64,000 nucleotides of DNA from Candidatus Cloacimonadota bacterium (GTDB lineage: Bacteria; Cloacimonadota; Cloacimonadia; Cloacimonadales; TCS61): positions 1,908 to 65,907 of the forward strand of contig JAIPGP010000005.1 of NCBI GenBank assembly GCA_021735645.1, in the 5' to 3' direction. This document shows, piece after piece, positions 10,501 through 64,000 of the stretch (its first letter is position 1; the number at the start of each line of letters is the position of its first letter). The translations under genes were made by a program, and so were the position numbers. The notes under the pieces were generated by a model. It made no database searches, was not told the DNA's origin, and worked only from the letters and a program-made list of their open reading frames with translations.

Positions 10501-12302
10501 TCCCGGGTCCACATGGTCCCAGCCCGATTATTGCAGCTTTCTGGGATGATCTTATAAACAGCGGAGGTCATGTTTATACCTATTATGACGCAGCCCAGCA
10601 CTACTATGTGATTGAATGGGATTATATGCATAATGAAGCAACCAGCTCAGAAGAAACTTTCCAGATGATCCTTTATGATCCAAATTTCTATCCCACTACA
10701 TCCGGTGACAGTGAAATTAAGATGCAGTATAAGACAATAAACAATAATAACGCTGGCACATATCGGGCAGATCATGGTCAATATTGTACAGTAGGACTGG
10801 AAGACCCCACAGGAACTATCGGTCTGCAATACACCTATAATAATACATATTCCAATGCAGCCAAGCCTCTGGAAAACCAGATGGCTATCCTCTTCACCAG
10901 CCCTCCGATCCCTCCGGATGGTCCCTTCCTCACTATCGTTGATTATAGTGCTGTTGCCGGCGGTGACAGCTTCATAGAAGCTGGCGAAGAAGCTGTTATC
11001 ACTATCACTCTGGAAAATATTGGAGCAGATACTGCTAATAATATTGATGTGGTAATCACCGAAAATGACCAGTATATAGAGCTTGTGAATGATACAGGTT
11101 CATGTGATCTGGTATTAGCAAATGGCATGGTAACCATACCAGATGCCTTCACGATCAGTATCAGCGAAAATGTCCCTGATTTTTATACTTTCTCTCTTAA
11201 TGCCAATATTTCAAGTGATGAAGATTCCTGGAGCCAGTTAATTGTGCTCACTGCCTATCAGGCAAATACTTTTGCAGTTAATCCAGAATCTATTGATTAT
11301 GAACTTATCTGGGGTAATACCGGCAGCACTTCATTTGAAATAACAAACATTGGGGATGTACCGGTTAATTTTTATATCAGAACAGATGAAACTCACCCAA
11401 CCAGAGATATCACAGGCTCTTTCATGACTTGTGATACAGAAGGATTCACACCTGGTGAAACTACCACCTGGACTTTTACGGCTTATAATGGAGCCGCAGA
11501 CGCTGAATGGATTTCTGATCTCTGGTTAGACTTCCCCTTAGGTGTAACGGTTAATAGTGCCAGCAGCTTTATAGGTGGTTCCGGTGGAGATATGCCCTGG
11601 GATGGTACAACGGGACAAGGTGCTTATGTAAACTGGCATGGTGCATCAGTTAATGACTGGGGATACCTGCATGTAGGCGAAGCTGCATCAGCCGCAGTAG
11701 AAGTGACATTGAGCACAGAATTTGCCGGTGACTTGACCATTAATTATACAATTGGCGGAGATGGCTATGGTAATGACCCTCATCTGGTTGATGGCGAGAT
11801 CATGATGGATTATCCTTTGCGCTGGATAAATCTCAATATGTCATCAGGCACAATTTTTCCCAACCAGTCACAGGAAATCATTGTTAATTTTGATACCAGT
11901 GACATTGAAGAAGCTGTGCATTCCTGCAATATCGTGATCACATCTGATAGCTGGGATGGTAAAACCATTCCTGTTACCCTCACCCCCAGCACTAATGATA
12001 GTGATCCCCAGCAGATACCTGCCAGCAACCTGCTGAGCCAGAACTACCCGAATCCATTCAATCCGCAAACCAGTATTCCTTTCAGCATTAGTCAGCCGGC
12101 TGCCAATGTTACTCTGAAGGTTTATAACATGAAAGGTCAGGCAATCAGAACTCTGCTTAACGCTCCTTCTGAGGCTGGAAATTACTCCCTGAACTGGGAC
12201 GGAAAAGATGATAAGGGCAAGGACGTTGCCAGCGGAATTTATTTCTCTAATCTATCGGTAGATGGAGAAAGACAAACCCGCAAAATGGTGATGATCAAAT
12301 AA
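7536..12302 (+). CDS. Giant (1588 aa) peptidase C25 (gingipain)-family-like protein with Ig-like/CARDB-like repeats, a NIDO-like module and a T9SS C-terminal sorting domain
   Basis: Signal peptide; C25 propeptide/catalytic-domain-like N-terminus (VVLVGDANG..., GDQPYSQLAGNDVLADVLVGRLSV, ILTCSTGSF); repeated NPGE/DPGE Ig-like segments; C-terminus NYPNPFNPQTSIPF...GIYFSNL...RKMVMIK. Confidence 0.85.
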   Translation: MKKFFVFAIVMLIGISLFGAWVTIPEHDGAELVKYTQPERGNISLEFNLDGYQLEQIVKSGNSYSQISYPEEGKILEIGMPDLPVFTRLIAIPDEGTATLTITSSSSRIIKDITVYPQEELLTESEPIRETFSINAEYYQTGGIYPAALAELGEPAIMRDLRLVKVTFCPFQYNAAKRELTIHENIIVEVETSGRGGINAKTADRPRSRAFTNIYQSQVLNYAEVANLREDYQRPAILFIYPDNTTVENSLEYLLDWKDKKGYDVSAAHTGETGTSNTSIKNYIQDAYDDWTNPPEFVVLVGDANGSVAIPSWTETWSWYSGIGDQPYSQLAGNDVLADVLVGRLSVNSVSELQTMIAKSINYERDPYMGNTDWFERAILVGDPSHSGPSTVSTCKAVKTYIQNYNDDFTFNETYTSNWDTGLSNGINQGGSFVCYRGYIGMSGWDTGDINALTNGWMLPLGCILTCSTGSFDGTANSEVFAKAGSATVPKGAIAAYGTATSGTHTCFNNSVTSGIYYGIFIDHIFNPGGALVRGKLNLYTQYPQNPSNYVDIFSHWNNLMGDPSVQLWTGVPQQMTVFYEDEVAAGTNYMQIVVLDPAGTPLQGAWVTARGNDYYQTGFTDINGVYYLDVQDTEIGEDYELTVSSHNCLIFEEEFTVELADIYLDIENLVLNDDGGDGIANPGENIILELTINNYGTNPATSVEASLESFNDLVTVTSATTQLDDIAVGESVNNNDLTISIDPAALGSMTIQLNLTLDSDQGTWIAPIFLSIEGAVLEITDYTVVDANGVIDPGETREIYFDITNLGEITAMNVTGELECLNRRITIIDSLADFGSVMPGDDVNNYNDRYEITASSAILPGSQIPVSIHFTNANGYDAMAAFMIEVGIVTVSDPLGPDDYGYYCYDDEDSDYDKCPEYDWIEINDIGDDTGLYVTNVPQDDCDIENIDFPADFTFVFYGEEYDMFTVATAGWISPGGTEVKSFMNWTVPGPHGPSPIIAAFWDDLINSGGHVYTYYDAAQHYYVIEWDYMHNEATSSEETFQMILYDPNFYPTTSGDSEIKMQYKTINNNNAGTYRADHGQYCTVGLEDPTGTIGLQYTYNNTYSNAAKPLENQMAILFTSPPIPPDGPFLTIVDYSAVAGGDSFIEAGEEAVITITLENIGADTANNIDVVITENDQYIELVNDTGSCDLVLANGMVTIPDAFTISISENVPDFYTFSLNANISSDEDSWSQLIVLTAYQANTFAVNPESIDYELIWGNTGSTSFEITNIGDVPVNFYIRTDETHPTRDITGSFMTCDTEGFTPGETTTWTFTAYNGAADAEWISDLWLDFPLGVTVNSASSFIGGSGGDMPWDGTTGQGAYVNWHGASVNDWGYLHVGEAASAAVEVTLSTEFAGDLTINYTIGGDGYGNDPHLVDGEIMMDYPLRWINLNMSSGTIFPNQSQEIIVNFDTSDIEEAVHSCNIVITSDSWDGKTIPVTLTPSTNDSDPQQIPASNLLSQNYPNPFNPQTSIPFSISQPAANVTLKVYNMKGQAIRTLLNAPSEAGNYSLNWDGKDDKGKDVASGIYFSNLSVDGERQTRKMVMIK

Positions 12303-12378: not shown

Positions 12379-12417
12379 AACTGCTGGATAAATAGAAGAA
12401 TCAGGATGGGATATTTT

Positions 12418-15400
12418 ATGAAGAATTGCGGCTTATTGATTTTGATAACACTGCTGAATATTACATTGTGGGGATTGCAGATTGATATACCTGATAATGC
12501 TCAGAACAAATTAGTGGAATATGAACAAATTGATGAAGGCAATATTCATCTGGAATTTAACCTGGATAAATATGAAAGAGAAGAACTCACCAGAGCTGAG
12601 GTCACCTACACAAAAATAAGCAATCCGGAAGCTGGCAGTTTATTAGATATCGGCATGCCAGACCTGCCGGTTTTCACCCGCCTGGTCGCTATACCTGATG
12701 AGGGGAATCCCCTCTTGACCATAACTTCTTTAAACTCACATACAATAAAAAATATCATGATCTATCCGCAAGAAGAAATCCTGACTGAGACTGAAACCGA
12801 GCGAGATGTTTTCACAATTGATTCCGAATACTATCAGCAGGGAGGTATTTATCCGGCTGCTGCAGCAGTGCTGGGAGAACCGGCAATAATGCGTGATATA
12901 AGACTCGTAAAAGTCACCTTCAATCCCTTCCAGTATAATGCTGCTGCCAGGGAACTGGTAATACACGATAATATCTGCGCGGAACTTACTATCAGCGGCA
13001 GTGGAGGCATAAATGTCAAAACCGGAAACCGCCCACCATCACGTGTCTTTGACAATTTATACGCTTCTTCAGTATTAAATCATGCGGAAACCACAAATCT
13101 GCGAACCGATTTCCAGAGACCGGCTATTTTATTCATTTATCCGCAAAACAACAATGTTGAGAACAATCTGCAATATCTCATGGACTGGAAAAACAAAAAA
13201 GGATTTGATGTTACTTCTGCCAGTACCAGCCAAACCGGTACAACATCTGCCATGATCAAAAACTATATCCAGAACGCTTATGATAACTGGGAAAATCCCC
13301 CTGACTATGTGGTTTTAGTAGGCGACGTGAGCGGGACAATTTTACTTCCTTCCTGGTATGAAAGCTGGAGCGGTACGCAGGGGATTGGTGATCATCCCTA
13401 TGCACAACTGGAAGGTAATGATGTATTGGCAGATATTATCTTAGGCAGAATATCGGTAAATAATATCAATGAATTGCAAACCGTCATCGCCAAATCTATA
13501 AATTATGAAAGAGAACCTTATATGGATAATACCCAGTGGTTTGAAAACGCAATATTATTTGCTTACGGCGGACCGGGTAAAATTGCCACCTGTGAAACAG
13601 TAGAAGGATATATCAGCATTCACAATAACGATTTCTCTTTTACCGAAATTTACTACAGTAACTGGGTATATGCGTTAGACCAGGCCTTAAATACGGGAGC
13701 TAGTTATTTATGCTGGCGGAGTCAAGGAGTGGATTGTGACTGGAATAATAATAATATATATGCCTTGAACAATGGCTGGATGCTGCCTTATGGTGTATTA
13801 TGCACCTGCTTTACTGCTGATATTTATGGAAGCAGTCTCAGTGAAGCTTTTGTGAAAGCGGGAACTTCTACCATCCCAAAAGGCGGAATTGCCGCAGTGG
13901 GCACTTCCACGGGAATGACTTCCGGCTGCTTCAATAATTGCATTACAAATGGTGTCTTTTATGGCATTTTTATCGATAATATCTATACTACCGGCGGAGC
14001 GTTAGTGCGGGGAAAACTGAATCTCTATCAGCAATATCCCAGTAATCCCAGCAATCATGTAAATTGCTGGTCACATTGTAATAATCTCATGGGCGATCCT
14101 TCTATAGAGCTGTGGACAGGTATTCCTCAACCCATGCTCGTGAATATCCCGGATGAGGTGGCTTTCGGGACGAATTTTATGGAAATTAACCTGACTGATG
14201 AGGCTGGTGTTCCTCTGGAAAATGGCTGGGTTACTGCCCGTGGAGATAATGATTATTACCAGACTGGCTATACAGATATGCAGGGTAAATATTATCTGGA
14301 TATCTCAGGCACAGAAATGAACCAGACATTTGAAATCACTATAACCTCACATAATAAAATACCTTATGAAAATGAGATCAACGTTATTCAGGCTGAATAT
14401 CTTCTTGATATTGCTCAGGTAAACTTCCTGGACTCACAGGGCGATGGAATCCCTAACCCCGGCGAAGAAATCACTCTGGAACTCACTATTGCCAATGACG
14501 GCTCCAGCGATCTCACAGGTATTTCTGCAGAACTGGTTTCTCTAAATGATAACGTTTCAGTTGTTATTTCCAATACTGATTTAGGAGACCTTAACAGCGG
14601 AAGTCAATTAGTAAATTCCGATCTTGCAATTTATCTCGACTCGGCAACTCCTGGAGGCAGCAGAGTCCAATTACAGCTCATTCTCACTTCTGATGGAGAA
14701 ATATATGTGATACCGCTCTTTATAGATATTTCCGGTGCTACACTCTATATAGCCAGTTATGTTGCCCAGGATTCTAATGGCATACTTGATCCTGGAGAAT
14801 CTGCTGATATCTATTTCATGATTGAAAATCTGGGTGCTATTGCTGCAACTTCAATTTACGGTGAACTGGCTTGCTTTAACAGCAGGATCTCGATTCAGGA
14901 CAGTACGGGATTTTTTGGAGATATTGCCCCGGGAGGCACTGCCTATAATTTTTCTGATACTTTTGAAATCACTGCCGACAGTAACATTATTCCTGGCACA
15001 CAAATCCCGGTGACTATCACTTTTACGAACCTTAATGGTTATAATGAAACCTGTTCTTATTTAATTGAGATAGGCACTGTAACTGAGGAAGACCCTTTAG
15101 GTCCCGATGAATACGGATATTACTGCTATGATGATGGAGATACTGCTTACGATGAATGCCCCGTTTATGACTGGATAGAAATACACAGCATCGGAGATAA
15201 TCTGGGCTTATATACCCCAGGTGACGAAGCTGATATCGAAGATGTTGAACTGCCGGCTGATTTCTCATTTGTCTTTTATGGCTTAGAATACGATATGATC
15301 ACTGTAGCTTCTGCCGGCTGGATTTGCCCCGGTGGAACAGATGCCGCGGAATTTATGAACTGGACCCTGCCCGGAGCTGGAGGAGCAAGTCCCATGATCG

Positions 15401-17181
15401 CAGCTTTCTGGGATGATATCCACAATGGCTATAATGGAGGTGTATATACTTATTATGACGCTGCCCAGCATTATTTTATCATCGAATGGGATCACATGCA
15501 AAATGAGCATAATAATGAAGAAGAAACATTTCAAATATTGCTCTACGACCCTGATTACTATCCGACTACTACAGGTGACAGCAAAATAAAAATACAGTAC
15601 AAGGCATTTACTAATGCCAATATCGGTGAATATCCCTATCACGGAGCTGATCATGGTCTCTATTGCACTGTAGGACTGGAAGACCATACTGCCACAAGAG
15701 GATTACTTTATACTTATAATAATACCTATCCCACTGCTGCAAAACCGATCACCTCTGAATCTGCCCTGCTGTTCACCGTTTCTCCTGTCCCCCAGGATGG
15801 TCCCTTCCTTAACATTGTAGATTATGAAGCCTATGCCGGAGGTGACTGCTTTATCGAAGCCGGCGAAGAAGCCATGATCTCGATTGTACTGCAAAATTTA
15901 GGGGCTGAATCTGCTAATGACGTGCAGGTTATTCTCTCCGGAGATGATCAGTATATTGATATTCTGAATGATACCGCTAATTGTGACCTTGTTTTGGCAA
16001 ATTCCATGGTAACAATTCCCAATGCTTTTTTAATCAGTGTCAGTGAAAATGTCCCTGATTTCTATTCTTTTTCTCTTAATGTAAATATCAGCAGCAATGA
16101 AGAAGCCTGGAACCAGCTGATCATACTCACCGCTTATGAATTAAACACCTTCACAGTTGATCCGGCGGTTATAAATTACGAAATGATCTGGGGTAATTCT
16201 GACAGCACTTCTTTTGAACTCGCTAATATAGGTGATATTCCCATAAATTTCTATATCCGCACAGATGAAACTTCTACCAGCAGAGATGTTATGGGTTCTT
16301 TCCTGGAATGTGATGCCACAGGTTTTACTCCCGGGCAATCCACTTACTGGACATTTACGGTGCATAATGGCGCAATTGATAATGAATGGATTTCTGATGT
16401 CTGGATAGATTTCCCCTTAGGGGTTACCCTGATTGAAGCCGGAGATTTTGTCGGTGGTTCCGGTGGAAATATGTTCTGGGACGAAACTACTGGTCAAGGT
16501 GCCAATGTCAACTGGCATGGAACTACTGTAAGTGACTGGGGAGTACTGCATTATGGAGAAGTAGCCTCCGCTACAATGTTTGTAAATCTCAGCACCGAAT
16601 TTGCCGGTGATCTCACTATTAATTATTCAATTGGCGGAGACGGCTATGGCAATGAACCTCATGTCATAAATGGCGAGATCATTCTGGAATACCCGCTGCG
16701 CTGGATTAACCTCAATATGTCATCTGGTACAATACCTCCCGGTCAGTCACAGGAAATCTGCGTTGATTTTGACACTGCTGATATTGAAGAAACCGTGCAT
16801 ACCTGCAATATCGTGATCACATCTGATAGCTGGGACACTAAAACCATTCCCGTCACGCTAATTCCTGTCGCCCAGGGTAATGATCCGGAATCAATTCCTG
16901 CCAGTAATATATTGAGCCAGAATTATCCTAATCCCTTCAATCCCCGAACGATTATTCCCTTCAGCATCTGCGAGTCAGCTGCAAATGTGACCCTGAAAAT
17001 ATATAATCTGAAAGGTCAGGCAATCAGAACTCTGCTGAATGCCCCGACAGAACCAGGCAATTTCACCTTGTACTGGGATGGAAAGGATGATAACGGCAAA
17101 GATGTTGCCAGTGGTATATATTTCTCTAATCTCTCAGTAGATGGAGAAAAGCAGACCCGCAAAATGGTGATGATCAAATAG
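12418..17181 (+). CDS. Giant (~1587 aa) peptidase C25-family-like paralogue with T9SS C-terminal sorting domain
   Basis: Colinear with 7536..12302 over its full length and ends in the same RKMVMIK. I prefer the ATG at 12418 (MKNCGLLILI... signal peptide) over the ATG at 12406 used in the ORF track. Confidence 0.85.
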   Translation: MKNCGLLILITLLNITLWGLQIDIPDNAQNKLVEYEQIDEGNIHLEFNLDKYEREELTRAEVTYTKISNPEAGSLLDIGMPDLPVFTRLVAIPDEGNPLLTITSLNSHTIKNIMIYPQEEILTETETERDVFTIDSEYYQQGGIYPAAAAVLGEPAIMRDIRLVKVTFNPFQYNAAARELVIHDNICAELTISGSGGINVKTGNRPPSRVFDNLYASSVLNHAETTNLRTDFQRPAILFIYPQNNNVENNLQYLMDWKNKKGFDVTSASTSQTGTTSAMIKNYIQNAYDNWENPPDYVVLVGDVSGTILLPSWYESWSGTQGIGDHPYAQLEGNDVLADIILGRISVNNINELQTVIAKSINYEREPYMDNTQWFENAILFAYGGPGKIATCETVEGYISIHNNDFSFTEIYYSNWVYALDQALNTGASYLCWRSQGVDCDWNNNNIYALNNGWMLPYGVLCTCFTADIYGSSLSEAFVKAGTSTIPKGGIAAVGTSTGMTSGCFNNCITNGVFYGIFIDNIYTTGGALVRGKLNLYQQYPSNPSNHVNCWSHCNNLMGDPSIELWTGIPQPMLVNIPDEVAFGTNFMEINLTDEAGVPLENGWVTARGDNDYYQTGYTDMQGKYYLDISGTEMNQTFEITITSHNKIPYENEINVIQAEYLLDIAQVNFLDSQGDGIPNPGEEITLELTIANDGSSDLTGISAELVSLNDNVSVVISNTDLGDLNSGSQLVNSDLAIYLDSATPGGSRVQLQLILTSDGEIYVIPLFIDISGATLYIASYVAQDSNGILDPGESADIYFMIENLGAIAATSIYGELACFNSRISIQDSTGFFGDIAPGGTAYNFSDTFEITADSNIIPGTQIPVTITFTNLNGYNETCSYLIEIGTVTEEDPLGPDEYGYYCYDDGDTAYDECPVYDWIEIHSIGDNLGLYTPGDEADIEDVELPADFSFVFYGLEYDMITVASAGWICPGGTDAAEFMNWTLPGAGGASPMIAAFWDDIHNGYNGGVYTYYDAAQHYFIIEWDHMQNEHNNEEETFQILLYDPDYYPTTTGDSKIKIQYKAFTNANIGEYPYHGADHGLYCTVGLEDHTATRGLLYTYNNTYPTAAKPITSESALLFTVSPVPQDGPFLNIVDYEAYAGGDCFIEAGEEAMISIVLQNLGAESANDVQVILSGDDQYIDILNDTANCDLVLANSMVTIPNAFLISVSENVPDFYSFSLNVNISSNEEAWNQLIILTAYELNTFTVDPAVINYEMIWGNSDSTSFELANIGDIPINFYIRTDETSTSRDVMGSFLECDATGFTPGQSTYWTFTVHNGAIDNEWISDVWIDFPLGVTLIEAGDFVGGSGGNMFWDETTGQGANVNWHGTTVSDWGVLHYGEVASATMFVNLSTEFAGDLTINYSIGGDGYGNEPHVINGEIILEYPLRWINLNMSSGTIPPGQSQEICVDFDTADIEETVHTCNIVITSDSWDTKTIPVTLIPVAQGNDPESIPASNILSQNYPNPFNPRTIIPFSICESAANVTLKIYNLKGQAIRTLLNAPTEPGNFTLYWDGKDDNGKDVASGIYFSNLSVDGEKQTRKMVMIK

Positions 17182-41057: not shown

Positions 41058-44000
41058 TTGATTGACATGAAAATGAGTAAGGTTAAAAGACGAAATAAGG
41101 AAGGAAATGAAATGTTAAAAGATATAAATGAAAAATCAACAGCTTTGGAAAGTAATTTACGGGAGACAAACCGGGGCAGCAAAATTATTCCGGAAAAATA
41201 TCAGTGGCTGTTGTCTCAGTCAATTGGTAAAAAGGGTATAAATGAGCGTTGTAAGACTCTATTAGATGAGTATAATCATCCTTTTTCTAACCATAAAGTA
41301 GCAACAGAAGATCTGGTGCAGGTTGCTTTAAGTGATTTATGGTATTATGATCAGCTGCCTGAACGCCGGAGGATATATGAGTTGATATTAGGAATATTTT
41401 CTGATTTATTGCAGCGTTATATAGAAGTAGATATTCAAGACCGTCTGATTCAGACCCTGATTCGGTTTATTAGTAAGCTTGCTGAGCAGGATAACTATGA
41501 TCTGGTATCAATCCAGTCAGGTCTGGAGCTGATAAAAAACATCTATCGCAGTGATTCTATACTACTGGAGCGTAACAGCACTTATATCAAGAATAATTTC
41601 AAGGTTGTATATGAGATTCCGGAAATGAGAGAGGTTTGTCTGGATTATTGCCGTAAGTTATTAAGCGGAGTTTATTCACGCTGGCATGATTTACCGCAAT
41701 TAGAGGAATGGTATAAGGAAAAACAAGCACTTTTTGGAGAAGATTATCAGTCATTGATCCATGAGACGGGCAGGGAATTTATCGAATCTGAGCGAAAACG
41801 TCTGATGTCCATCAAGAATTGGGACGATGTCAGAGGAATGTCATTTTATGGTGATCTGGCTCAGAAATACCGGAGCCTGATTAGCCGCTTTGCGACCAGT
41901 CAGGAAAAGATTTATTATATTCTCTATTTATTTAAACTGGATGACATGTATCAGATGAGAAAGAGTTTATTGCTGGACTTGAACCGAACAATGCGTCGAG
42001 TGGGTGAAGAAATAGAATTAGAAGAGATGCAGAAATTTATGCAGGAAATATTTGGCTTGTTTGCAGAGCTAAAGGATAATTACCGCGAGACGGTTCTGGA
42101 CAGCATTTTATCATTGGGCAAGACGATAATAAGCTATGGCAATAAAGATTTACGACATTTATTCATAGATTTAGTGATCGGGCTGGGATTTGTCTCGCCA
42201 CGTGATGTAAAGATAGATAACGAGTGGCAGGTAGTGATAGACAGCAATCACATCAAGAATATCAGGGTATGGCTGCAGCTTGTGGAGCTGGACCCGATCG
42301 GGATGAACCGCTTGCTAAGTGCGCTTATTATAAATTTACGCGTAGGCGGTATATTTGTCTCTGATACGGATTTATTCCAAAAAGATATATCAAGGTTTCT
42401 GAGAGGAAATATTCAGCCTATCTTTAAACAAGTAAAGCAATTAGCCAGATTATTCCCTATTTATTATAATAAAATTGGGGCAGAAGGCGAATTACGGGAA
42501 TTGACAACAGCTATTGATGAGATGGGTCGCAGGCAGGACCGGCTGCTGCATTTTTTCCGCAAACAGGTTCACACTGAGAGCAATAATACTAACGTGGATC
42601 TGGCAAGGGATATACTGGAATACTGGGAGGGTGGTTATAGTGCGAAGGCGAAAACAACTCTACCAGATGATGTAAGAAAATTTATGAATACTGAAAATGA
42701 ATTTTATATTTTTAATCATCAGCTGGTGAAATTGTTGTGCGGGGAATATAAGTGCACGGTAATGGGTCTGGCAGAGCTGGATAGAAAAATCCTGGAGCGG
42801 TCCATAGATGAGAAACAGGAAATACCGGAGGTATACCGCCGGAAAGTGATGTATTTGATTCGGATTTATAATATTCTGCAGGAAAAGTATAGTTTTGGGA
42901 TAACAGATTTGGATAGTACCTTGCGGAAAAGCGGATTATGCGAAGAAAAGGATATCAAGTTATTGCTGGAATCATGGAAAGGTAAAAAATGGGCAGAGGC
43001 ATTGGAGAGTTTATTTGCGATCATGAAGAAGCTTGTGAAAGTAATATTTTCTTCAGAGCCTACAGAGGTGCGGGAAGACATCTATTATAAGCGTCATGTT
43101 GCTGCAGGGATACCTTCGATGTATGGCGAATACCGAGAGGCAAGGTTTGATGCCTTGGGCTTGATTTTCCGGCTGGAACAATTGGGTAAAGTGCTTTTGG
43201 AGAAAATTGAGAACAGAATAGACCTGATCTATTTCACCCATAAAACTCTGGAGCGGATTTATAGATTATTAAGGTTATATGAGACCGGATTGGAGATGGA
43301 TGGCATCAGTAATCCGGGATTCAGTTCCAATCTTGAGATGTTTCGCTATAGTCTGGAATCCAGCTTCACTTTGGATCAGTACCAGAACATTTTTCAGTTT
43401 CTGGCAGAGAATGCAAAGGAAATAGTGAAGGAATATTTTTACCGGATATATGAGCAGCCTTTGATGAAGATCACTGTGCAATATTTAGCAGAAGGCGGGA
43501 TAGAAGAGCGAATGCAGCAATCAGACCGCCTGTCGGAAAAATTTTACCGGGATGTTTTAACCTCGGCTTTTATTATCCAGAAGCTGGATAATTTTATCAT
43601 GACGCTCTTGAAATCTAACCGTGATATTGTCCAAAAATATGAAAAACAACACTTGATTATGCTCTTAAATTATGAGCCAGACCAGATAATGAGTCCGCTT
43701 TATTTATCTACTCCCGAGGTGGACAATCCGATATTTCTGGGTTCAAAGGCATATTTCTTGAAAGTAATGCTGGAAAAGGGATTTCCCATTCCACCAGGAT
43801 TTGTGCTTTCTACAGAGCTGTTCCGGCACCGTCCACTGGTTCTGCTTGAGGGTGCCTTTCGCACAGATATCTTGAATAAGATACGTAAGCAGGTGAAAAG
43901 ATTGCAGAGCCTGGCAGGCAGAAAGTTTGGTGACCCGGCAAATCCGATGTTACTAAGTGTGCGTTCCGGTACAGCGATTTCGATGCCGGGAGCGATGAAT

Positions 44001-45212
44001 ACTTTTTTAAATGTGGGAATGAATGATGAAATTGCTGAAGAGATGAGTAAGCAGAAAGGTATGGGCTGGACTGCCTGGGATTCTTACCGGCGTTTATTGC
44101 AGAGCTGGGGAATGGCGCAAAAAATTGAGCGGGATAAATTTGATGAGATCATTCAGGGTTATAAAACGGAGTTTGGGATTGCGATGAAGCAGAACCTGAG
44201 CACTGAGCAGATGAAACGGATTGCCCTGGCATATAAGAAAAAGATTCTGGATTGCGGAAAAGAATTTATCGATGATCCTTTTGAGCAGCTGTTTAAGGCT
44301 ATTGGATATGTGCTGGACAGCTGGGGCTCAGATCGCGCTTTGGTATATCGGGAGCAAATGCAGATAGCACATGAATGGGGAACTGCTGTTGTAGTTCAAC
44401 AAATGGTGATGGGTAATATGAGCGAGAATTCGGGGACTGGTGTCCTTTTTACCCATGACCCGGCAAGTAATGAACCAGGCTTAAAGCTCTATGGTGAATA
44501 CACTGTGTGCAGTCAGGGAGAAGATGTAGTTGCCGGACTGGTGAATGTGAAACCCTTAACCCGCCAGCAAGGTAAAGTCTTAAGCGATAATGGCAATGAC
44601 AGCCTGGAAGCAAAACTGCCGCTGATTTTTAATCGCTTAAATGAACTGGCAGCAAAAATGATCTATGACCATGGTTTCAGCCACCAGGAAATAGAATTTA
44701 CTTTTGAGTCTGAGAATCCGGAAGATTTATATATCCTGCAGACCCGGAATCAGGACATTCAAACTAAGCGGGACTTCAAGATATTTTCTGCCAAGCGGGA
44801 AGAAATGGTATTTGCCGGTAGCGGCATAGGCATAGGTGGCGGAGCATTGAACGGGATTTTAGCCTTTAATGAAGATGATTTGCATACTTACCGTCAGCAG
44901 TATCCGGATATGGCAATGATCTTAGTCCGCCCCGATACGGTTCCAGATGATATCGGCATGATCTTTAAATGTGATGGCTTGATCACGGGTAGAGGTGGAG
45001 CAACCTCTCATGCAGCTGTAACAGCAGTGAGGCTGGGTATAGTGTGTATAGTAAATTGCCGGCAACTGGTTGTTGATGAAGAGAAAAAATGTTGTCAAAT
45101 CCTTGATAAAAAACTGTTTAGCGGAGATAAAGTGGCGATTGATGGTCATTTTGGGAATATCTATATCGGTAATTATGATGTGCAAACGGAAAGGATGTCT
45201 TATCAGGGATAG
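41058..45212 (+). CDS. 1384-aa protein: ~870-aa unrecognised N-terminal region fused to a PPDK-type ATP-grasp nucleotide-binding domain and swivel phosphohistidine domain; no PEP/pyruvate TIM barrel
   Basis: The C-terminal ~510 aa are colinear with PPDK: FGDPANPMLLSVRSGTAISMPGAMNTFLNVGMND, YRRLLQSWG, GTAVVVQQMVMGN, SGTGVLFTHDP, QGEDVVAGL, QEIEFTFE..LYILQTRN, ILVRPDTVPDDIGMI, GLITGRGGATSHAAVTAVRLG. The start is uncertain: TTG at 41058, or ATG at 41112, which follows AGGAAGGA. Confidence 0.8.
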   Translation: MIDMKMSKVKRRNKEGNEMLKDINEKSTALESNLRETNRGSKIIPEKYQWLLSQSIGKKGINERCKTLLDEYNHPFSNHKVATEDLVQVALSDLWYYDQLPERRRIYELILGIFSDLLQRYIEVDIQDRLIQTLIRFISKLAEQDNYDLVSIQSGLELIKNIYRSDSILLERNSTYIKNNFKVVYEIPEMREVCLDYCRKLLSGVYSRWHDLPQLEEWYKEKQALFGEDYQSLIHETGREFIESERKRLMSIKNWDDVRGMSFYGDLAQKYRSLISRFATSQEKIYYILYLFKLDDMYQMRKSLLLDLNRTMRRVGEEIELEEMQKFMQEIFGLFAELKDNYRETVLDSILSLGKTIISYGNKDLRHLFIDLVIGLGFVSPRDVKIDNEWQVVIDSNHIKNIRVWLQLVELDPIGMNRLLSALIINLRVGGIFVSDTDLFQKDISRFLRGNIQPIFKQVKQLARLFPIYYNKIGAEGELRELTTAIDEMGRRQDRLLHFFRKQVHTESNNTNVDLARDILEYWEGGYSAKAKTTLPDDVRKFMNTENEFYIFNHQLVKLLCGEYKCTVMGLAELDRKILERSIDEKQEIPEVYRRKVMYLIRIYNILQEKYSFGITDLDSTLRKSGLCEEKDIKLLLESWKGKKWAEALESLFAIMKKLVKVIFSSEPTEVREDIYYKRHVAAGIPSMYGEYREARFDALGLIFRLEQLGKVLLEKIENRIDLIYFTHKTLERIYRLLRLYETGLEMDGISNPGFSSNLEMFRYSLESSFTLDQYQNIFQFLAENAKEIVKEYFYRIYEQPLMKITVQYLAEGGIEERMQQSDRLSEKFYRDVLTSAFIIQKLDNFIMTLLKSNRDIVQKYEKQHLIMLLNYEPDQIMSPLYLSTPEVDNPIFLGSKAYFLKVMLEKGFPIPPGFVLSTELFRHRPLVLLEGAFRTDILNKIRKQVKRLQSLAGRKFGDPANPMLLSVRSGTAISMPGAMNTFLNVGMNDEIAEEMSKQKGMGWTAWDSYRRLLQSWGMAQKIERDKFDEIIQGYKTEFGIAMKQNLSTEQMKRIALAYKKKILDCGKEFIDDPFEQLFKAIGYVLDSWGSDRALVYREQMQIAHEWGTAVVVQQMVMGNMSENSGTGVLFTHDPASNEPGLKLYGEYTVCSQGEDVVAGLVNVKPLTRQQGKVLSDNGNDSLEAKLPLIFNRLNELAAKMIYDHGFSHQEIEFTFESENPEDLYILQTRNQDIQTKRDFKIFSAKREEMVFAGSGIGIGGGALNGILAFNEDDLHTYRQQYPDMAMILVRPDTVPDDIGMIFKCDGLITGRGGATSHAAVTAVRLGIVCIVNCRQLVVDEEKKCCQILDKKLFSGDKVAIDGHFGNIYIGNYDVQTERMSYQG

Positions 45213-48316: not shown

Positions 48317-48708
48317 CTGTCGGAGAGGATCATATATCTGCTGTCCCGCTTGCGGGAGAGAGGAAAGTCCGAACACCAAAGGGCAGGATACTTCTTAACT
48401 GGAAGTCCTTGTGAAGGGGAGCTAGCTCCACAGAAACAAACCGCCGAAAGGTAAGGGTGAAATGGCAGAGTAAGAGCCTGCCAGATTCTGACGTGAGTCA
48501 GAATGCTCGGAAAGCCTTATCCGGTGCAATGCCAAATAGGGAAGCAGTCTTCGGACCCGGATTTGCCCGATCCGGTTTGCTTTCGGGTAGGCAGCTTAAG
48601 CCGGCTTAAATGTCCCGGTTGGGAATAGCAATATTCGGCTTAGAGAAATAGATGTATGATCACTTGTTAGGTGATTAACAGAATTCGGCTTATGACCGTC
48701 TCCGACAG
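48317..48708 (+). ncRNA. rnpB: RNase P RNA, bacterial type A
   Basis: P1 pairing of CTGTCGGAGA (48317-48326) with TCTCCGACAG (48699-48708). Conserved blocks: AGGAAAGTCCGAAC (48361-48374), ACAGAAACAAACCGCC, GGTAAGGGTGAAA, and ACAGAATTCGGCTTA (48678-48692). Confidence 0.92.
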
Positions 48709-59380: not shown

Positions 59381-59430
59381 AACAACAAAGCACAATCTAA
59401 CAAAAAAATGTTAGATTGTGCTTTGTTGTT
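59381..59430. repeat. Perfect 22-bp inverted repeat with an A6 loop
   Basis: AACAACAAAGCACAATCTAACA aaaaaa TGTTAGATTGTGCTTTGTTGTT, 100 nt after the NIF3 stop. Confidence 0.9.
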
Positions 59431-59483: not shown

Positions 59484-59536
59484 GTTTATAGGACTTATAG
59501 GACCTATAGGACCTATAAGTCCTATAAGACCTATTG
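59484..59536. repeat. Six tandem 9-bp units of the YTATAGGNC family
   Basis: GTTTATAG GACTTATAG GACCTATAG GACCTATAA GTCCTATAA GACCTATTG. Confidence 0.9.
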
Positions 59537-59687
59537 GGAGATTAAGAAGCAAAATGATAATAATGATTAATTCTCTGGGATGGCAGTGATACGTTAGAGG
59601 AAATGATAAAGATATGATTCAGGAAGTTGATGTTGAATAACTTCATAAAAGTTGACATATAAACAACCAGTCAAAGGGATTGCATTT

Positions 59688-60668
59688 ATGAAAGAGATAT
59701 TAAAAGAGAATTTAGAGACTGGTGGGGTAAAATTACCTGAAAGTGCTGGAGTTGTAGCGTTTTTTGGTGAAGGCAAGATGCTGATGTGCAGCATGACCAG
59801 CAACATATCAGTATATCTGGGAGTATATTTTCTGGAAGATATAGAGGATAAGAATCAGGGTGAATTAGTGGAGCGTTGTGATAAAGTGGGATATTGGGAG
59901 ACGGGCAAGGTATTTGCCGCTCTTCTGGGCTTCAAAGCTCTGGTACAGAAATACGCTCCTCCATTTAACCGGATGATCAGGTATTATGATGATTATGTAT
60001 ATCTGGGTATAAATTTTGTGAAAGTGCCCTTTATTAAGGTGGAGAGTACAACAATACATGATTATTTTTATGTGGGACCATTTCGGAGCCGTTATTTTCT
60101 GCATGATGTGATAGACAGTTCAGGCGAGTATTTTGGGACTCCGGGCTGTCCTGGAGAGAGTTTTCCCTGTGAATTGATGGAGGCAGGAAAGTGTCAGGGA
60201 TATTGCGTAACCGGTCAGGATAATCTATCAGCAGAGCTTACCCGTTATTTTTTACTGCCCCGGCATGAGAACCTTGAAAAAGTGAAGTTAGAAATAGATG
60301 AGCTGCTTGATGCTTTACGTTTTAGTGAAGCGGAAGCTGTGCGTCAGCAGGAGAAGATATTGACCAGTTTTTATCATCAGATAGCTTTTTTACTGGTAAC
60401 CAAGCACTTAAATATGCATTATGACTACAATGGCAAGCAGATAGAAATAGCTGAAGGATTGATCACGCGGATAGATGGCAGGATATTAGACAGAGTGAAG
60501 CAGGAATATCAGCCAAATGAATTATTTGCAGTCGATAAATCTGAGCTTGATGAGCGTTGGATAGTTTTTAATGAAGTGATTCATCAGATACCGGAGAAGC
60601 TGCTGGAATGTCATGAAACAGCACGGCAGCAGTTAGCGGAATATTTATTAAATAAGGAAAAGCCATGA
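59688..60668 (+). CDS. UvrC N-terminal-half-like protein (degenerate GIY-YIG, Cys-rich segment, UVR-like helix); lacks the C-terminal endonuclease/HhH half
   Basis: Colinear by eye with UvrC residues ~1-250: LPESAGVVAFF (PGVYlf), AALLGFKALVQKYAPPFNRMIRYYDDYVYLGI (EALLLE..LIk...P.YN..l.DDk.YP), YVGPF (YFGPY), CPGESFPCELMEAGKCQGYCV (C...pCl.yqi.rC.gPC), LLDALRFSEAEAVRQQ (UVR). The ATG at 59688 is preferred over the TTG at 59652, which is itself a TTGACA box. Confidence 0.6.
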   Translation: MKEILKENLETGGVKLPESAGVVAFFGEGKMLMCSMTSNISVYLGVYFLEDIEDKNQGELVERCDKVGYWETGKVFAALLGFKALVQKYAPPFNRMIRYYDDYVYLGINFVKVPFIKVESTTIHDYFYVGPFRSRYFLHDVIDSSGEYFGTPGCPGESFPCELMEAGKCQGYCVTGQDNLSAELTRYFLLPRHENLEKVKLEIDELLDALRFSEAEAVRQQEKILTSFYHQIAFLLVTKHLNMHYDYNGKQIEIAEGLITRIDGRILDRVKQEYQPNELFAVDKSELDERWIVFNEVIHQIPEKLLECHETARQQLAEYLLNKEKP

Positions 60669-61078
60669 AAGAAGAAAAGAAGATAAATTTGTTAATAGTT
60701 GATGATGATGTAATAAATGTTCGAGGTTTGCAGTTAAGGATCAGTAAACAGTATAAGAATATTACAGTAGAGACAGCCTATGATGGTTTTAGTGCCTTAC
60801 GCAGGATCCGTCAGGGTGGTATAAATGCAGTGCTCACAGATGTAATGATGCCTGATATGGATGGTTGTGAGCTTTATAATAAGATCAAGGAAACCGATAA
60901 TGATATTCAGGTGATCATGATGACAGCCTTTTATGATCCATCTCATGCCGTGATTAGAGCTAAAGTGAAGGGATTAAAGGATGTGGTACCCAGTCTGGAA
61001 TTAATAGAGAAGCAAGATCTGGCAGATATAATATTCCAGAAAATCGAGCAGCATTTTTTAAATAGCGAGGAAGAATAG
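60665..61078 (+). CDS. Stand-alone response-regulator receiver (CheY-like) protein
   Basis: ATGA overlap with the upstream gene. LLIVDDD..., acceptor LTDVMMPDMDG, MMTAF; no output domain. Confidence 0.85.
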   Translation: MKEEKKINLLIVDDDVINVRGLQLRISKQYKNITVETAYDGFSALRRIRQGGINAVLTDVMMPDMDGCELYNKIKETDNDIQVIMMTAFYDPSHAVIRAKVKGLKDVVPSLELIEKQDLADIIFQKIEQHFLNSEEE

Positions 61079-61088
61079 AGTCGCTGCA

Positions 61089-62006
61089 GTGAAACAGATA
61101 GCGATATTATTATTACTACTGCTGATTTTGCCTTGTTTGGCAGAGGTGCAGAATTATGATAATATTTATCTGGAATACACGGCGGGAGATGGGCGATTAG
61201 CTGCTGAACTGGGCGAGAAATTAGCAGCAGATATAGGAGATTTTCAGAAGAAGATAGGTCATTATCCCCTACTTGAGACGCATATAATCATTGCTGCTGA
61301 CCAGAAAGAATATGAGAGTTTTCTGCAGAGCAGCAGCGGAATCCAGGAATTTTCGCAGGCGATTTACCGGCATAGTACAAATACCATATATATTCGTAGT
61401 CCTCGAGATAACCTGCGGTATCAGGAATTAAATAAAATACTTCTGCACGAATATATTCACAGTTATGTATTCCATTATTTCAGTAATGCGCCCTTGTGGT
61501 TTCATGAAGGGATGGCGGTGTATTTCAGTAATGATTTCAGTCATAATCGGGAATTGGGTTTAGCAAGGGATTATTTGTTTGGTAATACCATGCCCTTATC
61601 AGAAATGCGGCAGAATTATCCGGTCAACCGGATAGAATGGGAATCGTTTTACGCTAAATCAGCTTTAGCAGTGAGATATTTATCTATTAATAAATCAGGT
61701 CAATTTTACCGTTTATGGGATTTTGCCGAAGATAGTGGACAATTCAATGCTTCATTTTTGCGTAGTTTTAAATATACAGCTTTAGATTTTTCACTGTTTT
61801 TTGAGGAGTATTGTAAGACTCATTTCCGGTCGGAAATCATTTTGGCACTTAGCGGGATGATCTGGCTGTTATTTCCTTTGTTATTTATTATCGGCTATAT
61901 TCGCCGGAGCCGGAAGATGCGTCAGAAACTTGCCGAGATGGAAGCTGGGGAAAGAATAGAAGATGCAGAACCGGAATTTGATTTTGAGATTGACGTGGAA
62001 GAATAG
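61089..62006 (+). CDS. Peptidase MA-like zinc metalloprotease candidate, C-terminally membrane anchored
   Basis: GTG start and signal peptide. HEYIH followed by WFHEGMAVYF (HExxH...E). C-terminal TM plus an acidic tail. Confidence 0.6.
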   Translation: MKQIAILLLLLLILPCLAEVQNYDNIYLEYTAGDGRLAAELGEKLAADIGDFQKKIGHYPLLETHIIIAADQKEYESFLQSSSGIQEFSQAIYRHSTNTIYIRSPRDNLRYQELNKILLHEYIHSYVFHYFSNAPLWFHEGMAVYFSNDFSHNRELGLARDYLFGNTMPLSEMRQNYPVNRIEWESFYAKSALAVRYLSINKSGQFYRLWDFAEDSGQFNASFLRSFKYTALDFSLFFEEYCKTHFRSEIILALSGMIWLLFPLLFIIGYIRRSRKMRQKLAEMEAGERIEDAEPEFDFEIDVEE

Positions 62007-62044: not shown

Positions 62045-62818
62045 ATGAAGGAATTTGATCAGCTGGTGCAGATCGTGGCAGACTTACGAAAGCCGGAAGG
62101 TGGCTGTCCCTGGGATAAGAAGCAGACTCATGCCAGTTTAGTACCCAATTTTATTGAAGAGCTGTATGAGGGTATAGAAGCGATCGAAGACGGAGATATG
62201 CAGGATTTACGGGAAGAATTAGGGGATTTGATGCTGCATATCGTGATGCAGAGCCGGATAGCGGAAGAGGACAGCGATTTCACAATGGCAGAGGTCTTGC
62301 AGGGTATCAATGATAAACTGGTGCGTCGTCACCCCCATATCTTTGGCACTGATATCGTGAAAGATGCTGAAGAAGTAAAAATGAACTGGGAACAGATCAA
62401 GCTGAAAGAGAAGACATTTCGCAAATCCGCCTTGGAGGGAGTACCGCAGGGGATGCCGAAATTGATTGTAGCTCAGCGGATGCAGGAGAAAGCGGCAGCC
62501 GTAGGTTTTGACTGGGATCATCATGGTCAGGTATTTGAGAAGCTTGATGAAGAGGTGATAGAGCTGAAGGAAGCTATAGAAAGCGGAGATCAGGAGCATA
62601 TAATGGAAGAATTGGGTGATTTACTATTTACAGTAGTGAATTTGAGCCGCAAGCTGGGCATAGACGCCGAAAGTGCTTTATCGGGCACAAACCGGAAATT
62701 TGAGCGACGATTTCGCCAGGTGGAAGAAATTTATAAAAGCAGAAAAGAAAAGATGCATGACAGCAGCCTTGAGCAGTTAGATGAAGTTTGGGAAACAGTT
62801 AAAGATACTGAAAAATAG
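62045..62818 (+). CDS. mazG: Nucleoside triphosphate pyrophosphohydrolase
   Basis: Tandem MazG domains: EELYEGIEAIE...EELGDLMLHIV and EEVIELKEAIE...EELGDLLFTVV. Confidence 0.9.
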   Translation: MKEFDQLVQIVADLRKPEGGCPWDKKQTHASLVPNFIEELYEGIEAIEDGDMQDLREELGDLMLHIVMQSRIAEEDSDFTMAEVLQGINDKLVRRHPHIFGTDIVKDAEEVKMNWEQIKLKEKTFRKSALEGVPQGMPKLIVAQRMQEKAAAVGFDWDHHGQVFEKLDEEVIELKEAIESGDQEHIMEELGDLLFTVVNLSRKLGIDAESALSGTNRKFERRFRQVEEIYKSRKEKMHDSSLEQLDEVWETVKDTEK

Positions 62819-64000
62819 TACTTCCAATATAATAAAGCTGTATTTTATTATTGGAAGTATCGTGATATTACTTGGTTTTCTGCTATTTACCAATTTATTG
62901 AGTAAAGACATTCAACGGGATATATCTGTAGTGCCGGATTTATATGCACAGTTCATCGGCTTGCCGGATAATGTGAATCTGGAGAACTTTTTAACGGATT
63001 ATTTCATGACCAAGATAATACCCTCCATAGATTATCCCATAATATTCTGTGATAGTTTACAAGTTCCCTTTTCCTGGGAAAACATCAATGTGGAGTCGAT
63101 AAATTATTCTGGTTTGGTGGATTCTGAGAAAGAGAAGCTGCAAAAGATGGTAAAAAAGCTTCATAAGCGGGGCAGCTATATTCTACTTTATAAGAGCAAA
63201 CATAAGAAAGACCTGATAGGTTATGTCTATTTTGGTGAGACAAGCTCCATGAAGCAATTGCGGTTCATGCCTTTTGTGGCAAGCGTTTTAGTGGTGGTAT
63301 TTATTTCTGTGGGAGCATTTGCCCTGGGTTATATGCGGAGAAATGAAAAGAATCAGCTCTGGATAGGACTGGCTAAAGAAACTGCCCATCAGTTTGGTAC
63401 GCCCACCTCCTCGCTGCTGGGCTGGCTGAGTATTATGCGCAGCAGGCTGGAAGGACGGAATGAGCAGGGTGAGTCGCAGGAATTGCTGGAATATATCGGT
63501 CATATAGAAACGGATGTAAATCGTCTGCAGAATGTAGCTTCCAGATTTGGCAAGGTAGGTTCTACTATTAAGCTGCAGGAAACAGTCTTAGATGAGATAA
63601 TTGATGAGACAGTGGGGTATTTTCGTTCGCGGGTGCCACAGGGCAGTAATAAGATAAGCATATATTATTTTAGTGAGATACATGATTTGAAGTTGCTAAT
63701 TGATAAAGATTTGATCAAGTGGACATTGGAGAATTTGATCAAAAACGCCATAGATGCCATGACCGGCAAGAGCGGCAGGATCATCCTGACTTCTGTCTTG
63801 CGTGACAGCAGTGTGCAATTGCGAATAAGTGACGAAGGAAAGGGAATACCGCGTAATATGTTTCAGCGGGTATTTCTGGCAGGAGTAACGAGCAAAGAGC
63901 GGGGCTGGGGACTGGGCTTGAGTCTGGCGAAGCGGATAATTGAGGAATATCATGAAGGCAAGATCAGGATATTGCAGAGTGACCTGAAAAAAGGAACTAC
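62781..64000 (+). CDS. Sensor histidine kinase (two TM segments, HisKA, HATPase_c); 3' end cut by window edge
   Basis: Not in the ORF track because there is no stop in the window. Hand translation from the ATG at 62781 gives MKFGKQLKILKNSTSNIIKLYFIIGSIVILLGFLLF..., a second TM FMPFVASVLVVVFISVGAFALGYM, the H-box ETAHQFGTPTSSLLGW, the N-box LENLIKNAIDA and the G-box GWGLGLSLAKRII. Confidence 0.8.
   Translation, partial: MKFGKQLKILKNSTSNIIKLYFIIGSIVILLGFLLFTNLLSKDIQRDISVVPDLYAQFIGLPDNVNLENFLTDYFMTKIIPSIDYPIIFCDSLQVPFSWENINVESINYSGLVDSEKEKLQKMVKKLHKRGSYILLYKSKHKKDLIGYVYFGETSSMKQLRFMPFVASVLVVVFISVGAFALGYMRRNEKNQLWIGLAKETAHQFGTPTSSLLGWLSIMRSRLEGRNEQGESQELLEYIGHIETDVNRLQNVASRFGKVGSTIKLQETVLDEIIDETVGYFRSRVPQGSNKISIYYFSEIHDLKLLIDKDLIKWTLENLIKNAIDAMTGKSGRIILTSVLRDSSVQLRISDEGKGIPRNMFQRVFLAGVTSKERGWGLGLSLAKRIIEEYHEGKIRILQSDLKKGT

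Follow-up and report, generated by a model that had tools for sequence, protein, structure and literature searches.

Class III Cho-like proteins are short UvrC homologues that combine a GIY-YIG domain, a Cys-rich motif, a UvrB-binding motif and a C-terminal domain (PMC10085695). A beta-sheet motif has been described for the N-terminal half of Deinococcus radiodurans UvrC (UvrC-N), and the Cys consensus of UvrC, CX6-14CX3(H/Q)X3CX3C, is thought to bind a [4Fe-4S] or [3Fe-4S] cluster (PMC10085695). In gamma-proteobacteria, a response-regulator gene (gacA/uvrY) lies next to uvrC and is cotranscribed with it, an arrangement of unclear significance (PMC8228185). Here we describe a 64,000-nucleotide stretch of DNA from a Candidatus Cloacimonadota bacterium (the window; all coordinates are positions in it, on the forward strand of contig JAIPGP010000005.1) in which a gene for a 326-amino-acid protein resembling the N-terminal half of UvrC, with a degenerate GIY-YIG motif, overlaps the gene for a stand-alone response-regulator receiver.

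The protein, referred to here as the focal protein, has the length (~310 to 350 amino acids), domain order, four-Cys spacing and C-terminal helix motif of class III Cho-like proteins such as P0130/P0188 from Cloacimonas metagenome-assembled genomes (MAGs) and P0137 from Cytobacillus spongiae. However, active class III members all keep the residues G-Y-Y-G-K-R-Y-E-N, whereas members of the focal family never do; the focal family also lacks significant Pfam GIY-YIG and UVR matches, has a C-terminal motif of its own and is linked to a receiver gene. With D. radiodurans UvrC-N it shares the GIY-YIG fold, the beta-sheet motif, a Cys insertion in a four-helix bundle and the position of a helical hairpin, but unlike UvrC the focal protein has neither the RNase H-type 5' endonuclease domain nor the tandem helix-hairpin-helix domain, (HhH)2, and its catalytic residues are substituted. 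The DEDD exonuclease-UvrC-N fusions of the PRK07883 group likewise contain a Cho-like N-terminal half, including the C-terminal domain, but they keep the full catalytic set (P0114, P0120, P0121, P0125 and others), and the focal protein carries no exonuclease domain. In the gacA/uvrY-uvrC operon, the regulator gene lies upstream and encodes a DNA-binding output domain, and UvrC is full length and active; in the Cloacimonadota operon, the UvrC-like gene comes first and encodes an N-terminal half that is predicted to be inactive, and the regulator consists of a receiver and nothing else. The two arrangements, found in unrelated phyla, are almost certainly independent.

A first-pass annotation of the window, made from its sequence, knew of no described pairing of an inactivated UvrC N-terminal domain with a phospho-receiver. 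This stands for the inactivated form, in that we found in the literature no description of an inactivated UvrC/Cho paralogue or of its pairing with a receiver, but the pairing of a response regulator with uvrC as such is known from gacA/uvrY-uvrC. Neither the fold nor the parent family is new, and a regulator gene beside uvrC has been proposed before as well.

Results

Homology and predicted fold

The focal open reading frame (ORF) could start at a TTG codon at 59652 or at an ATG codon at 59688. Because all 13 close homologues begin with MKEILKE and the TTG is itself part of a conserved box 5' of the gene (see below), we take the ATG start, giving the 326-amino-acid form, to be the right gene model. 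The identification of the product as a homologue of the N-terminal half of UvrC, proposed in the first-pass annotation, was borne out by profile methods. Residues 15 to 320 of the focal protein matched positions 7 to 322 of the 574-position NCBIfam model TIGR00194 (uvrC; E 8.8e-13), so that the protein indeed stops short of the RNase H-like endonuclease and (HhH)2 domains; at 47.8 bits the score lies below the curated equivalog cutoff of 285 bits. The top NCBIfam match was PRK07883.1-4, a model for DEDD exonucleases that carry a UvrC-N/Cho-like part as a fusion (E 4e-16, residues 15 to 226). A profile built from 13 homologues found the UvrC GIY-YIG crystal structures 1yd6 (Bacillus caldotenax; E 1.4e-6) and 1ycz (E 1e-3) in the PDB, whereas a phmmer search of the PDB with the single focal sequence returned only noise, so that the family profile was needed to reach the UvrC structures. 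Pfam applied to the focal protein alone gave nothing significant: we saw a chance match to Mre11_C (E 0.02), no match to GIY-YIG (PF01541) at E<=10 and none to UVR, PF08459, PF22920 or HhH, the chain ending at residue 326. The best database match was a hypothetical protein (100% identity) from a Candidatus Cloacimonetes MAG.

The AlphaFold2 (AF2) model of the focal protein reached a mean predicted local distance difference test score (pLDDT) of 77 with 13 sequences and of 95.5 with 58 family sequences, the latter with a predicted template modeling score of 0.91. It consists of a GIY-YIG domain (residues 1 to 97), a three-stranded beta motif (104 to 132), a four-helix bundle (135 to 240) with the Cys-rich insertion between its first two helices, and a beta3-alpha2 C-terminal domain (243 to 323); the same architecture has been reported for UvrC-N of D. 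radiodurans (PMC10085695). Foldseek matched the model to 1yd6 and 1ycz with template modeling (TM) scores, normalized to the target, of 0.84 to 0.88, root mean square deviations of 1.3 to 3.5 Å and a probability of 1.00 (for 1yd6 alone, 0.84 to 0.86 and 1.3 to 2.0 Å), showing that the GIY-YIG alpha/beta fold is present. In this search of the PDB only the GIY-YIG domain was matched, the rest of the protein being covered by no solved structure.

When 58 family members were aligned with 17 short active homologues by hhalign, the two profiles matched end to end, C-terminal domain included (probability 100%, E 1e-41, 296 columns, positions 15 to 313 against 5 to 317), and the order of the domains in the AF2 model agreed with this alignment. 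On these grounds the homology to the UvrC N-terminal half is far beyond chance, and the focal family is best placed among the short class III Cho-like homologues, which consist of the N-terminal half only, as one of their branches rather than as a truncated UvrC. We also considered, and rejected, the idea that the protein is one half of a split UvrC, as its catalytic residues are gone and its nearest relatives are stand-alone short proteins. Nor is the gene a pseudogene, since it is intact in every locus and the co-variation of 58 sequences sufficed for a model with the pLDDT of 95.5 given above.

A family found in Cloacimonadota

An exhaustive profile search of 1.84 billion representative sequences gave 5467 hits, 87 of them at E<=1e-30. 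The first ~100 hits (~100 sequence clusters of ~320 amino acids) were proteins of 300 to 335 amino acids that matched end to end; from about E 1e-20 onward we encountered genuine UvrC proteins (~600 amino acids), DEDD fusions and short Cho-like proteins, the full-length UvrC hits aligning mostly only to about residue 230. Every family member with an organism name came from Candidatus Cloacimonadota, and a scan of GTDB genomes found five species, all of them in the same phylum. Automatic annotation labels family members "excinuclease UvrABC nuclease subunit."

Degeneration of the GIY-YIG active site

To score the active site, we aligned all hits with the UvrC proteins of Thermotoga maritima and B. 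caldotenax and examined the positions of Y19, Y29, K32, R39, E76 and N88 (T. maritima numbering). The focal protein reads V23, M33, M36, Y43, F82 and N94 at these positions, so that only the Asn is kept; the first-pass annotation had reported both Tyr residues and the Arg to be substituted, and the alignment extends this to the Lys and the Glu. Among 85 full-length family representatives, none kept more than four of the six residues (none in 2, one in 26, two in 26, three in 20 and four in 11), whereas all six were present in 19/19 active homologues in the same alignment and the full set was found in every one of ~50 UvrC, Cho and fusion hits. Consistent with these counts, Pfam GIY-YIG was significant in none of the 58 family members but in all 17 active short homologues; six of the 58 gave sub-threshold matches to PF01541, the best at E 0.023.

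The residues that replace the catalytic ones vary widely between members and include hydrophobic ones, which points to relaxed constraint rather than to a redesigned site. Furthermore, mean pairwise identity within the family is 23% in the GIY-YIG domain compared with 41% in the beta motif, only helix a6 being lower (21%); in the active homologues, by contrast, few parts are better conserved than the GIY-YIG domain. We conclude that the 3'-incision nuclease site is degenerate in the focal protein, as judged by alignment, and that the family is specific to Cloacimonadota and phylum-wide, with an active site that appears decayed throughout. The family as a whole is very probably one of pseudo-nucleases.

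We found no second uvrC-like ORF in the window. However, at least two Cloacimonas-type MAGs that carry a family member (MDN5353544.1 and HCX73668.1) also hold an intact short paralogue of 310 amino acids with Pfam GIY-YIG and UvrC_M matches (MDN5354040.1 and HCX72964.1, respectively; P0130/P0188), which has the full catalytic set, so the degenerate copy is not the sole UvrC-N-like gene there. The gene for P0188 (L017, 6001 to 6933) lies between a metallophosphatase gene, whose end it overlaps, and a GAF-domain gene that comes after it, a neighborhood unrelated to that of the focal operon. Relatives of the intact paralogue occur in MAGs of Latescibacterota and Proteobacteria. With the intact Cloacimonas paralogue as the query, all proteins recovered from Cloacimonadota were short and none was a full-length UvrC; the full-length UvrC hits of the family profile search carried no organism names.

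Parts of the protein that are conserved

The three-stranded beta motif, with its YxYLG and Y.GPFR.RF blocks, is the best-conserved part of the family. Its strands in the AF2 model span residues 104 to 108, 116 to 119 and 127 to 132, and Y105 and G130 are invariant.

The four-Cys segment noted in the first-pass annotation is present as C154, C161, C169 and C173, and its spacing, C-x6-C-x3-E-x3-C-x3-C, fits the UvrC consensus exactly, with Glu at the H/Q position. All four Cys residues are kept in 73/85 family representatives, and the motif is a putative iron-sulfur (FeS) cluster site in the focal protein. The members that have lost all four include L012 7968-8915, L007 42-998, P0078, P0081 and P0095. 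In both all-Cys-loss loci examined (L012 and L007), purC directly follows the family gene; the remaining loci with purC in this position (L015/P0047 and L016/P0067) keep the four Cys residues.

The C-terminal beta3-alpha2 domain carries a family-specific motif, Y(R/Q)xNExxAxxKxxxxERW, in which E278 is invariant and A281, K284 and E289 are kept in 82, 79 and 79 of the 85 representatives, respectively. The domain as such aligns with that of the short active Cho-like proteins.

Linkage to the receiver gene

The stop codon of the focal gene (TGA, 60666 to 60668) overlaps the ATG of the receiver gene at 60665 in the ATGA manner (GCC ATG A; sequence GCCATGAAAG), as the first-pass annotation had read it. 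The features of the locus are collected in Table 1.

Table 1. Features of the focal locus and gene orders of the loci compared
Feature	Position or loci	Strand	Remarks
Conserved upstream box AAAGTTGACAT (TTGACA, -35-like)	59649..59659	+	~30 nt 5' of ATG
Catalytically degenerate Cho/UvrC-N-like protein (predicted pseudo-nuclease)	59688..60668	+	326 aa, stop included
GIY-YIG-fold domain, catalytic residues substituted	59688..59978	+	aa 1-97; Foldseek, residue mapping
Three-stranded beta-sheet motif	59979..60089	+	aa 98-134
Cys-rich motif, putative FeS-cluster site	60147..60206	+	aa 154-173; inserted between helices a5 and a6
Helical hairpin at UVR (UvrB-binding) position, sequence eroded	60264..60407	+	aa 193-240
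C-terminal beta3-alpha2 domain with family-specific motif	60408..60665	+	aa 241-326
Single-domain response-regulator receiver	60665..61078	+	137 aa; PF00072 E 2e-19, 70.2 bits
HExxH protein, putative membrane-anchored metallopeptidase-like	61089..62006	+	305 aa; weak Pfam SprT-like/BSP matches near the HExxH motif
MazG nucleoside-triphosphate pyrophosphohydrolase	62045..62818	+	PF03819 E 5e-39; conserved in type-A loci
Membrane sensor histidine kinase	62781..64000, runs off window end	+	Transmembrane segments, H-box ETAHQFGTPTSSL, ATPase-domain start
Type A order: family gene, receiver, HExxH protein, MazG, kinase, YjeF	Window, L001-L005, L008-L011, L013, L014		
Type B order: family gene, PurC, receiver, HExxH protein, tetratricopeptide repeat protein	L012, L015		
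Type C order: family gene, PurC, receiver, LpxK	L016		

We compared 15 independent loci besides the window, of which one (L006) is too short to show anything beyond the receiver. A further short contig (L007) ends inside purC. The receiver gene directly follows the family gene in the window, L001 to L006, L008 to L011, L013 and L014, and follows an inserted purC in L012, L015 and L016. The coupling is thus not peculiar to the genome of the window: it recurs wherever a locus extends far enough for it to be seen, at identities as low as ~26 to 30%, and the receiver is the only invariant neighbor of the family gene. The junction between the family gene and a directly adjoining receiver gene measures -20 to +29 nt, and that between the family gene and an intervening purC measures -4 to +36 nt. 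Genes further upstream vary by lineage (smpB, a beta-lactamase-fold gene, an RNA recognition motif gene, mfd and glycosyltransferase genes; NIF3, recX and recA in the window). In the distant type A loci L004 and L005, identity to the window is 47 to 48% for the family protein, 58 to 64% for the receiver and 71 to 78% for the kinase, from which it follows that the family gene evolves faster than these neighbors.

In the receiver, D13, D14, D59 (the acceptor) and T87 align with CheY D12, D13, D57 and T87, and these positions (the acidic pair, the acceptor and the Thr/Ser) are conserved in every receiver orthologue. The acceptor Asp is therefore intact, as first described, with the correction that the conserved Lys (the equivalent of CheY K109) is replaced in the clade of the window. 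An unusual segment after beta-4, MM(T/S)(G/A)(F/Y)(G)YDPxH, is common to all Cloacimonadota receiver orthologues, which may form a distinct receiver subfamily. The first-pass annotation had also placed a sensor kinase at 62781, and a histidine kinase ORF does start there, overlapping the end of mazG by 38 nt; a complete orthologue of this kinase matches HATPase_c (E 1e-20).

The box AAAGTTGACAT upstream of the focal gene has invariant columns across six aligned orthologous upstream regions, despite the differing genes further upstream, and it is probably the operon's own promoter element. The 406-bp spacer 5' of the focal gene gave no match in an Rfam scan. It contains a 9-bp tandem repeat (TATAGGACC, 5.3 copies, 89% matches; 59487 to 59534), which we rejected as a regulatory feature of the operon because the orthologues in L001 and L002 have no such repeat 5' of them. 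Right after the NIF3-family gene there is a hairpin with a perfect 20-bp stem (59382 to 59429). It resembles a terminator when read on the minus strand, on which a run of T residues comes after the stem, and we take it as the probable end of the upstream transcription unit.

Discussion

A proposed non-catalytic role beside the receiver

The explanation that seems to us to fit the whole best is that the family protein is a pseudo-nuclease scaffold working with the receiver, although we consider the balance for and against it to be even. The entire Cho/UvrC-N fold would have been kept while its one-metal GIY-YIG active site decayed, selection having shifted to a new C-terminal motif and to the beta and Cys motifs. 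The family gene would open its operon, driven by its own promoter-like box, and would be translationally coupled to the gene for a single-domain receiver, with a likely kinase in the same operon. The protein would then act in a noncatalytic mode, as a binding or scaffold partner that possibly bears an FeS cluster and whose state is set by the adjacent receiver, and it would be the output or adaptor of a two-component pathway instead of a DNA-incising enzyme. That the receiver is the functional partner is suggested by its lack of an output domain together with the likely kinase in the operon; we would put this part, taken by itself, at an even chance.

In a more specific form, the kinase would phosphorylate the bare receiver, which would then bind the FeS-bearing pseudo-nuclease and so gate UvrB, damaged DNA or some other partner, or the pair would constitute an FeS redox-sensing module. 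This form we hold to be distinctly doubtful.

Several observations weigh against the scaffold proposal. Four of the six catalytic residues persist in 11/85 members, some of which keep R39, E76 and N88 together (e.g., P0029; P0093 likewise counts among the less decayed members), so that residual activity in some lineages is possible. All four Cys residues are missing from 9/85 members, from which it follows that an FeS cluster is not essential to the family's common function. The receivers of the window clade lack the conserved Lys and read DVVPSLE (window, L001 to L005 and L008 to L010), whereas most other Cloacimonadota orthologues keep the switch Lys in D(V/I)(I/V)FKPF (L012 to L016 in this comparison); the receiver of the window clade may therefore not switch classically. 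The operon also carries the housekeeping genes mazG, yjeF, purC and lpxK, and so synteny could reflect coexpression only. Finally, the gacA/uvrY-uvrC pairing is one without an established functional meaning (PMC8228185).

Alternative explanations

The last two points lead to the reading that the linkage is synteny without functional coupling, such that the family protein serves some other purpose, structural or related to FeS, and is no more than a fellow member of the housekeeping operon that encodes the receiver, MazG, the kinase and YjeF. The unrelated genes in the operon (mazG and yjeF, with purC or lpxK in other lineages) agree with it, and gacA/uvrY-uvrC offers an earlier example in which a regulator is paired with uvrC and the significance is unclear (PMC8228185). 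However, the linkage has outlived the loss of the HExxH protein, MazG, the kinase and YjeF (L016) and the insertion of purC (L012, L015 and L016), it persists down to ~26 to 30% identity, and the start and stop codons overlap in several lineages. We therefore regard a mere sharing of an operon as unlikely, if by no means negligible.

A second alternative is that the protein is a noncutting accessory of nucleotide excision repair, which would bind the UvrB-DNA preincision complex by way of its UVR-like hairpin, perhaps with the FeS region contacting DNA, and would modulate, delay or hand over incision, for example by competing with the active nuclease or by recruiting it. The receiver would then be a mere neighbor or a regulator. 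The hairpin is the element on which this turns. The first-pass annotation had seen in it a UVR-like helix, and in the inactivated UvrC N-terminal domain a possible UvrB- or DNA-interaction module. The AF2 model has helices at residues 193 to 208 and 212 to 240, the UvrB-binding four-helix bundle fold is kept, and L210, F212 (the equivalent of the key Phe of the UvrB/UvrC motif) and A215 are found in 77, 83 and 65 of the 85 members, respectively. The UVR sequence motif, on the other hand, is eroded; its Glu, invariant in 19/19 active homologues, is kept in only 23/85 family members, and Pfam UVR (PF02151) touches 2/58 family members (best E 0.14) compared with 15/17 active short homologues. UvrB interaction is thus possible for the family but not supported. 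The retained Cys motif fits an accessory role, as does the fact that the window encodes Mfd with a UvrB-interaction domain. In transcription-coupled repair, an Mfd with a UvrB-interaction domain implies a UvrAB pathway, and mfd in the window accordingly implies that such a pathway is at work in this organism. Moreover, mfd is the divergent neighbor of the family gene in one other locus, and recA and recX occur in the window at a distance of two to three genes on its upstream side, but these repair-gene neighbors are not conserved between loci. Overall, an accessory role in repair strikes us as improbable.

That the protein is still a nuclease, with a rewired or relocated site (e.g., at E278/K284/E289 in the C-terminal domain) or with GIY-YIG remnants active in some members, is very improbable: although the acidic/basic C-terminal motif is strongly conserved, R39, E76 and N88 are retained in some members and GIY-YIG enzymes with unusual active sites such as R.Hpy188I are on record (PMC2630997), the GIY-YIG pocket contains no conserved alternative polar residue, and in its second half (ldERwII) the C-terminal motif lines up with a helix motif, lDRANI, that the active homologues also possess and that has no catalytic role in them.

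Other genes of the operon and window

Of 15 informative loci, 14 have the HExxH protein after the receiver; L016 lacks it. The protein has a predicted N-terminal signal or transmembrane segment, an HEYIH ... WFHEGMAVYF motif and a C-terminal transmembrane segment, and it resembles an uncharacterized family of membrane-anchored metallopeptidases. In a PADLOC scan, the focal protein and its neighbors matched no defense system.

The genome-maintenance genes mfd, recJ, recA and recX occur on the contig (18148 to 21540, 48736 to 50460 and 56646 to 58290). We considered the recJ/recA/recX neighborhood as a meaningful association and rejected it, as the upstream genes differ in every other locus. Elsewhere, the window contains a bacterial RNase P RNA of class A (48322 to 48707; 234 bits, full-length match) and two tandem paralogues of ~1590 amino acids (7536 to 12302 and 12406 to 17181), each with a gingipain-like Peptidase_C25 domain, its propeptide and a FlgD-Ig domain. 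The first of these also matches a type IX secretion C-terminal sorting domain, and the ORF at 36 to 3185 likewise has a type IX secretion tail. In a 1384-amino-acid protein (41058 to 45212), the C-terminal third matches PPDK_N and the PEP-utilizing mobile domain, and in the first ~900 residues Pfam finds nothing at E<=1e-5.

Implications

Pseudoenzymes derived from repair nucleases have rarely been documented in bacteria. The present family is large (~100 clusters), phylum-wide and under selection, with a confidently predicted structure and a stable genetic partner, and it could serve as a clean system in which to ask what the noncatalytic parts of UvrC and Cho do, namely, the Cys/FeS insertion, the beta motif and the "inactive RNase H1-like" end, and whether the FeS motif acts in structure, DNA charge transport or sensing. 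It would equally lend itself to asking how a single-domain receiver transfers a signal without the canonical Lys. In addition, the label "excinuclease UvrABC nuclease subunit" given to family members probably overstates the repair capacity of Cloacimonadota genomes. If a pathway from kinase to receiver to pseudo-nuclease does exist, the output of this two-component system would be a dead DNA repair nuclease and not a transcription factor, and environmental signaling would be wired directly to genome maintenance in an anaerobic, uncultured phylum.

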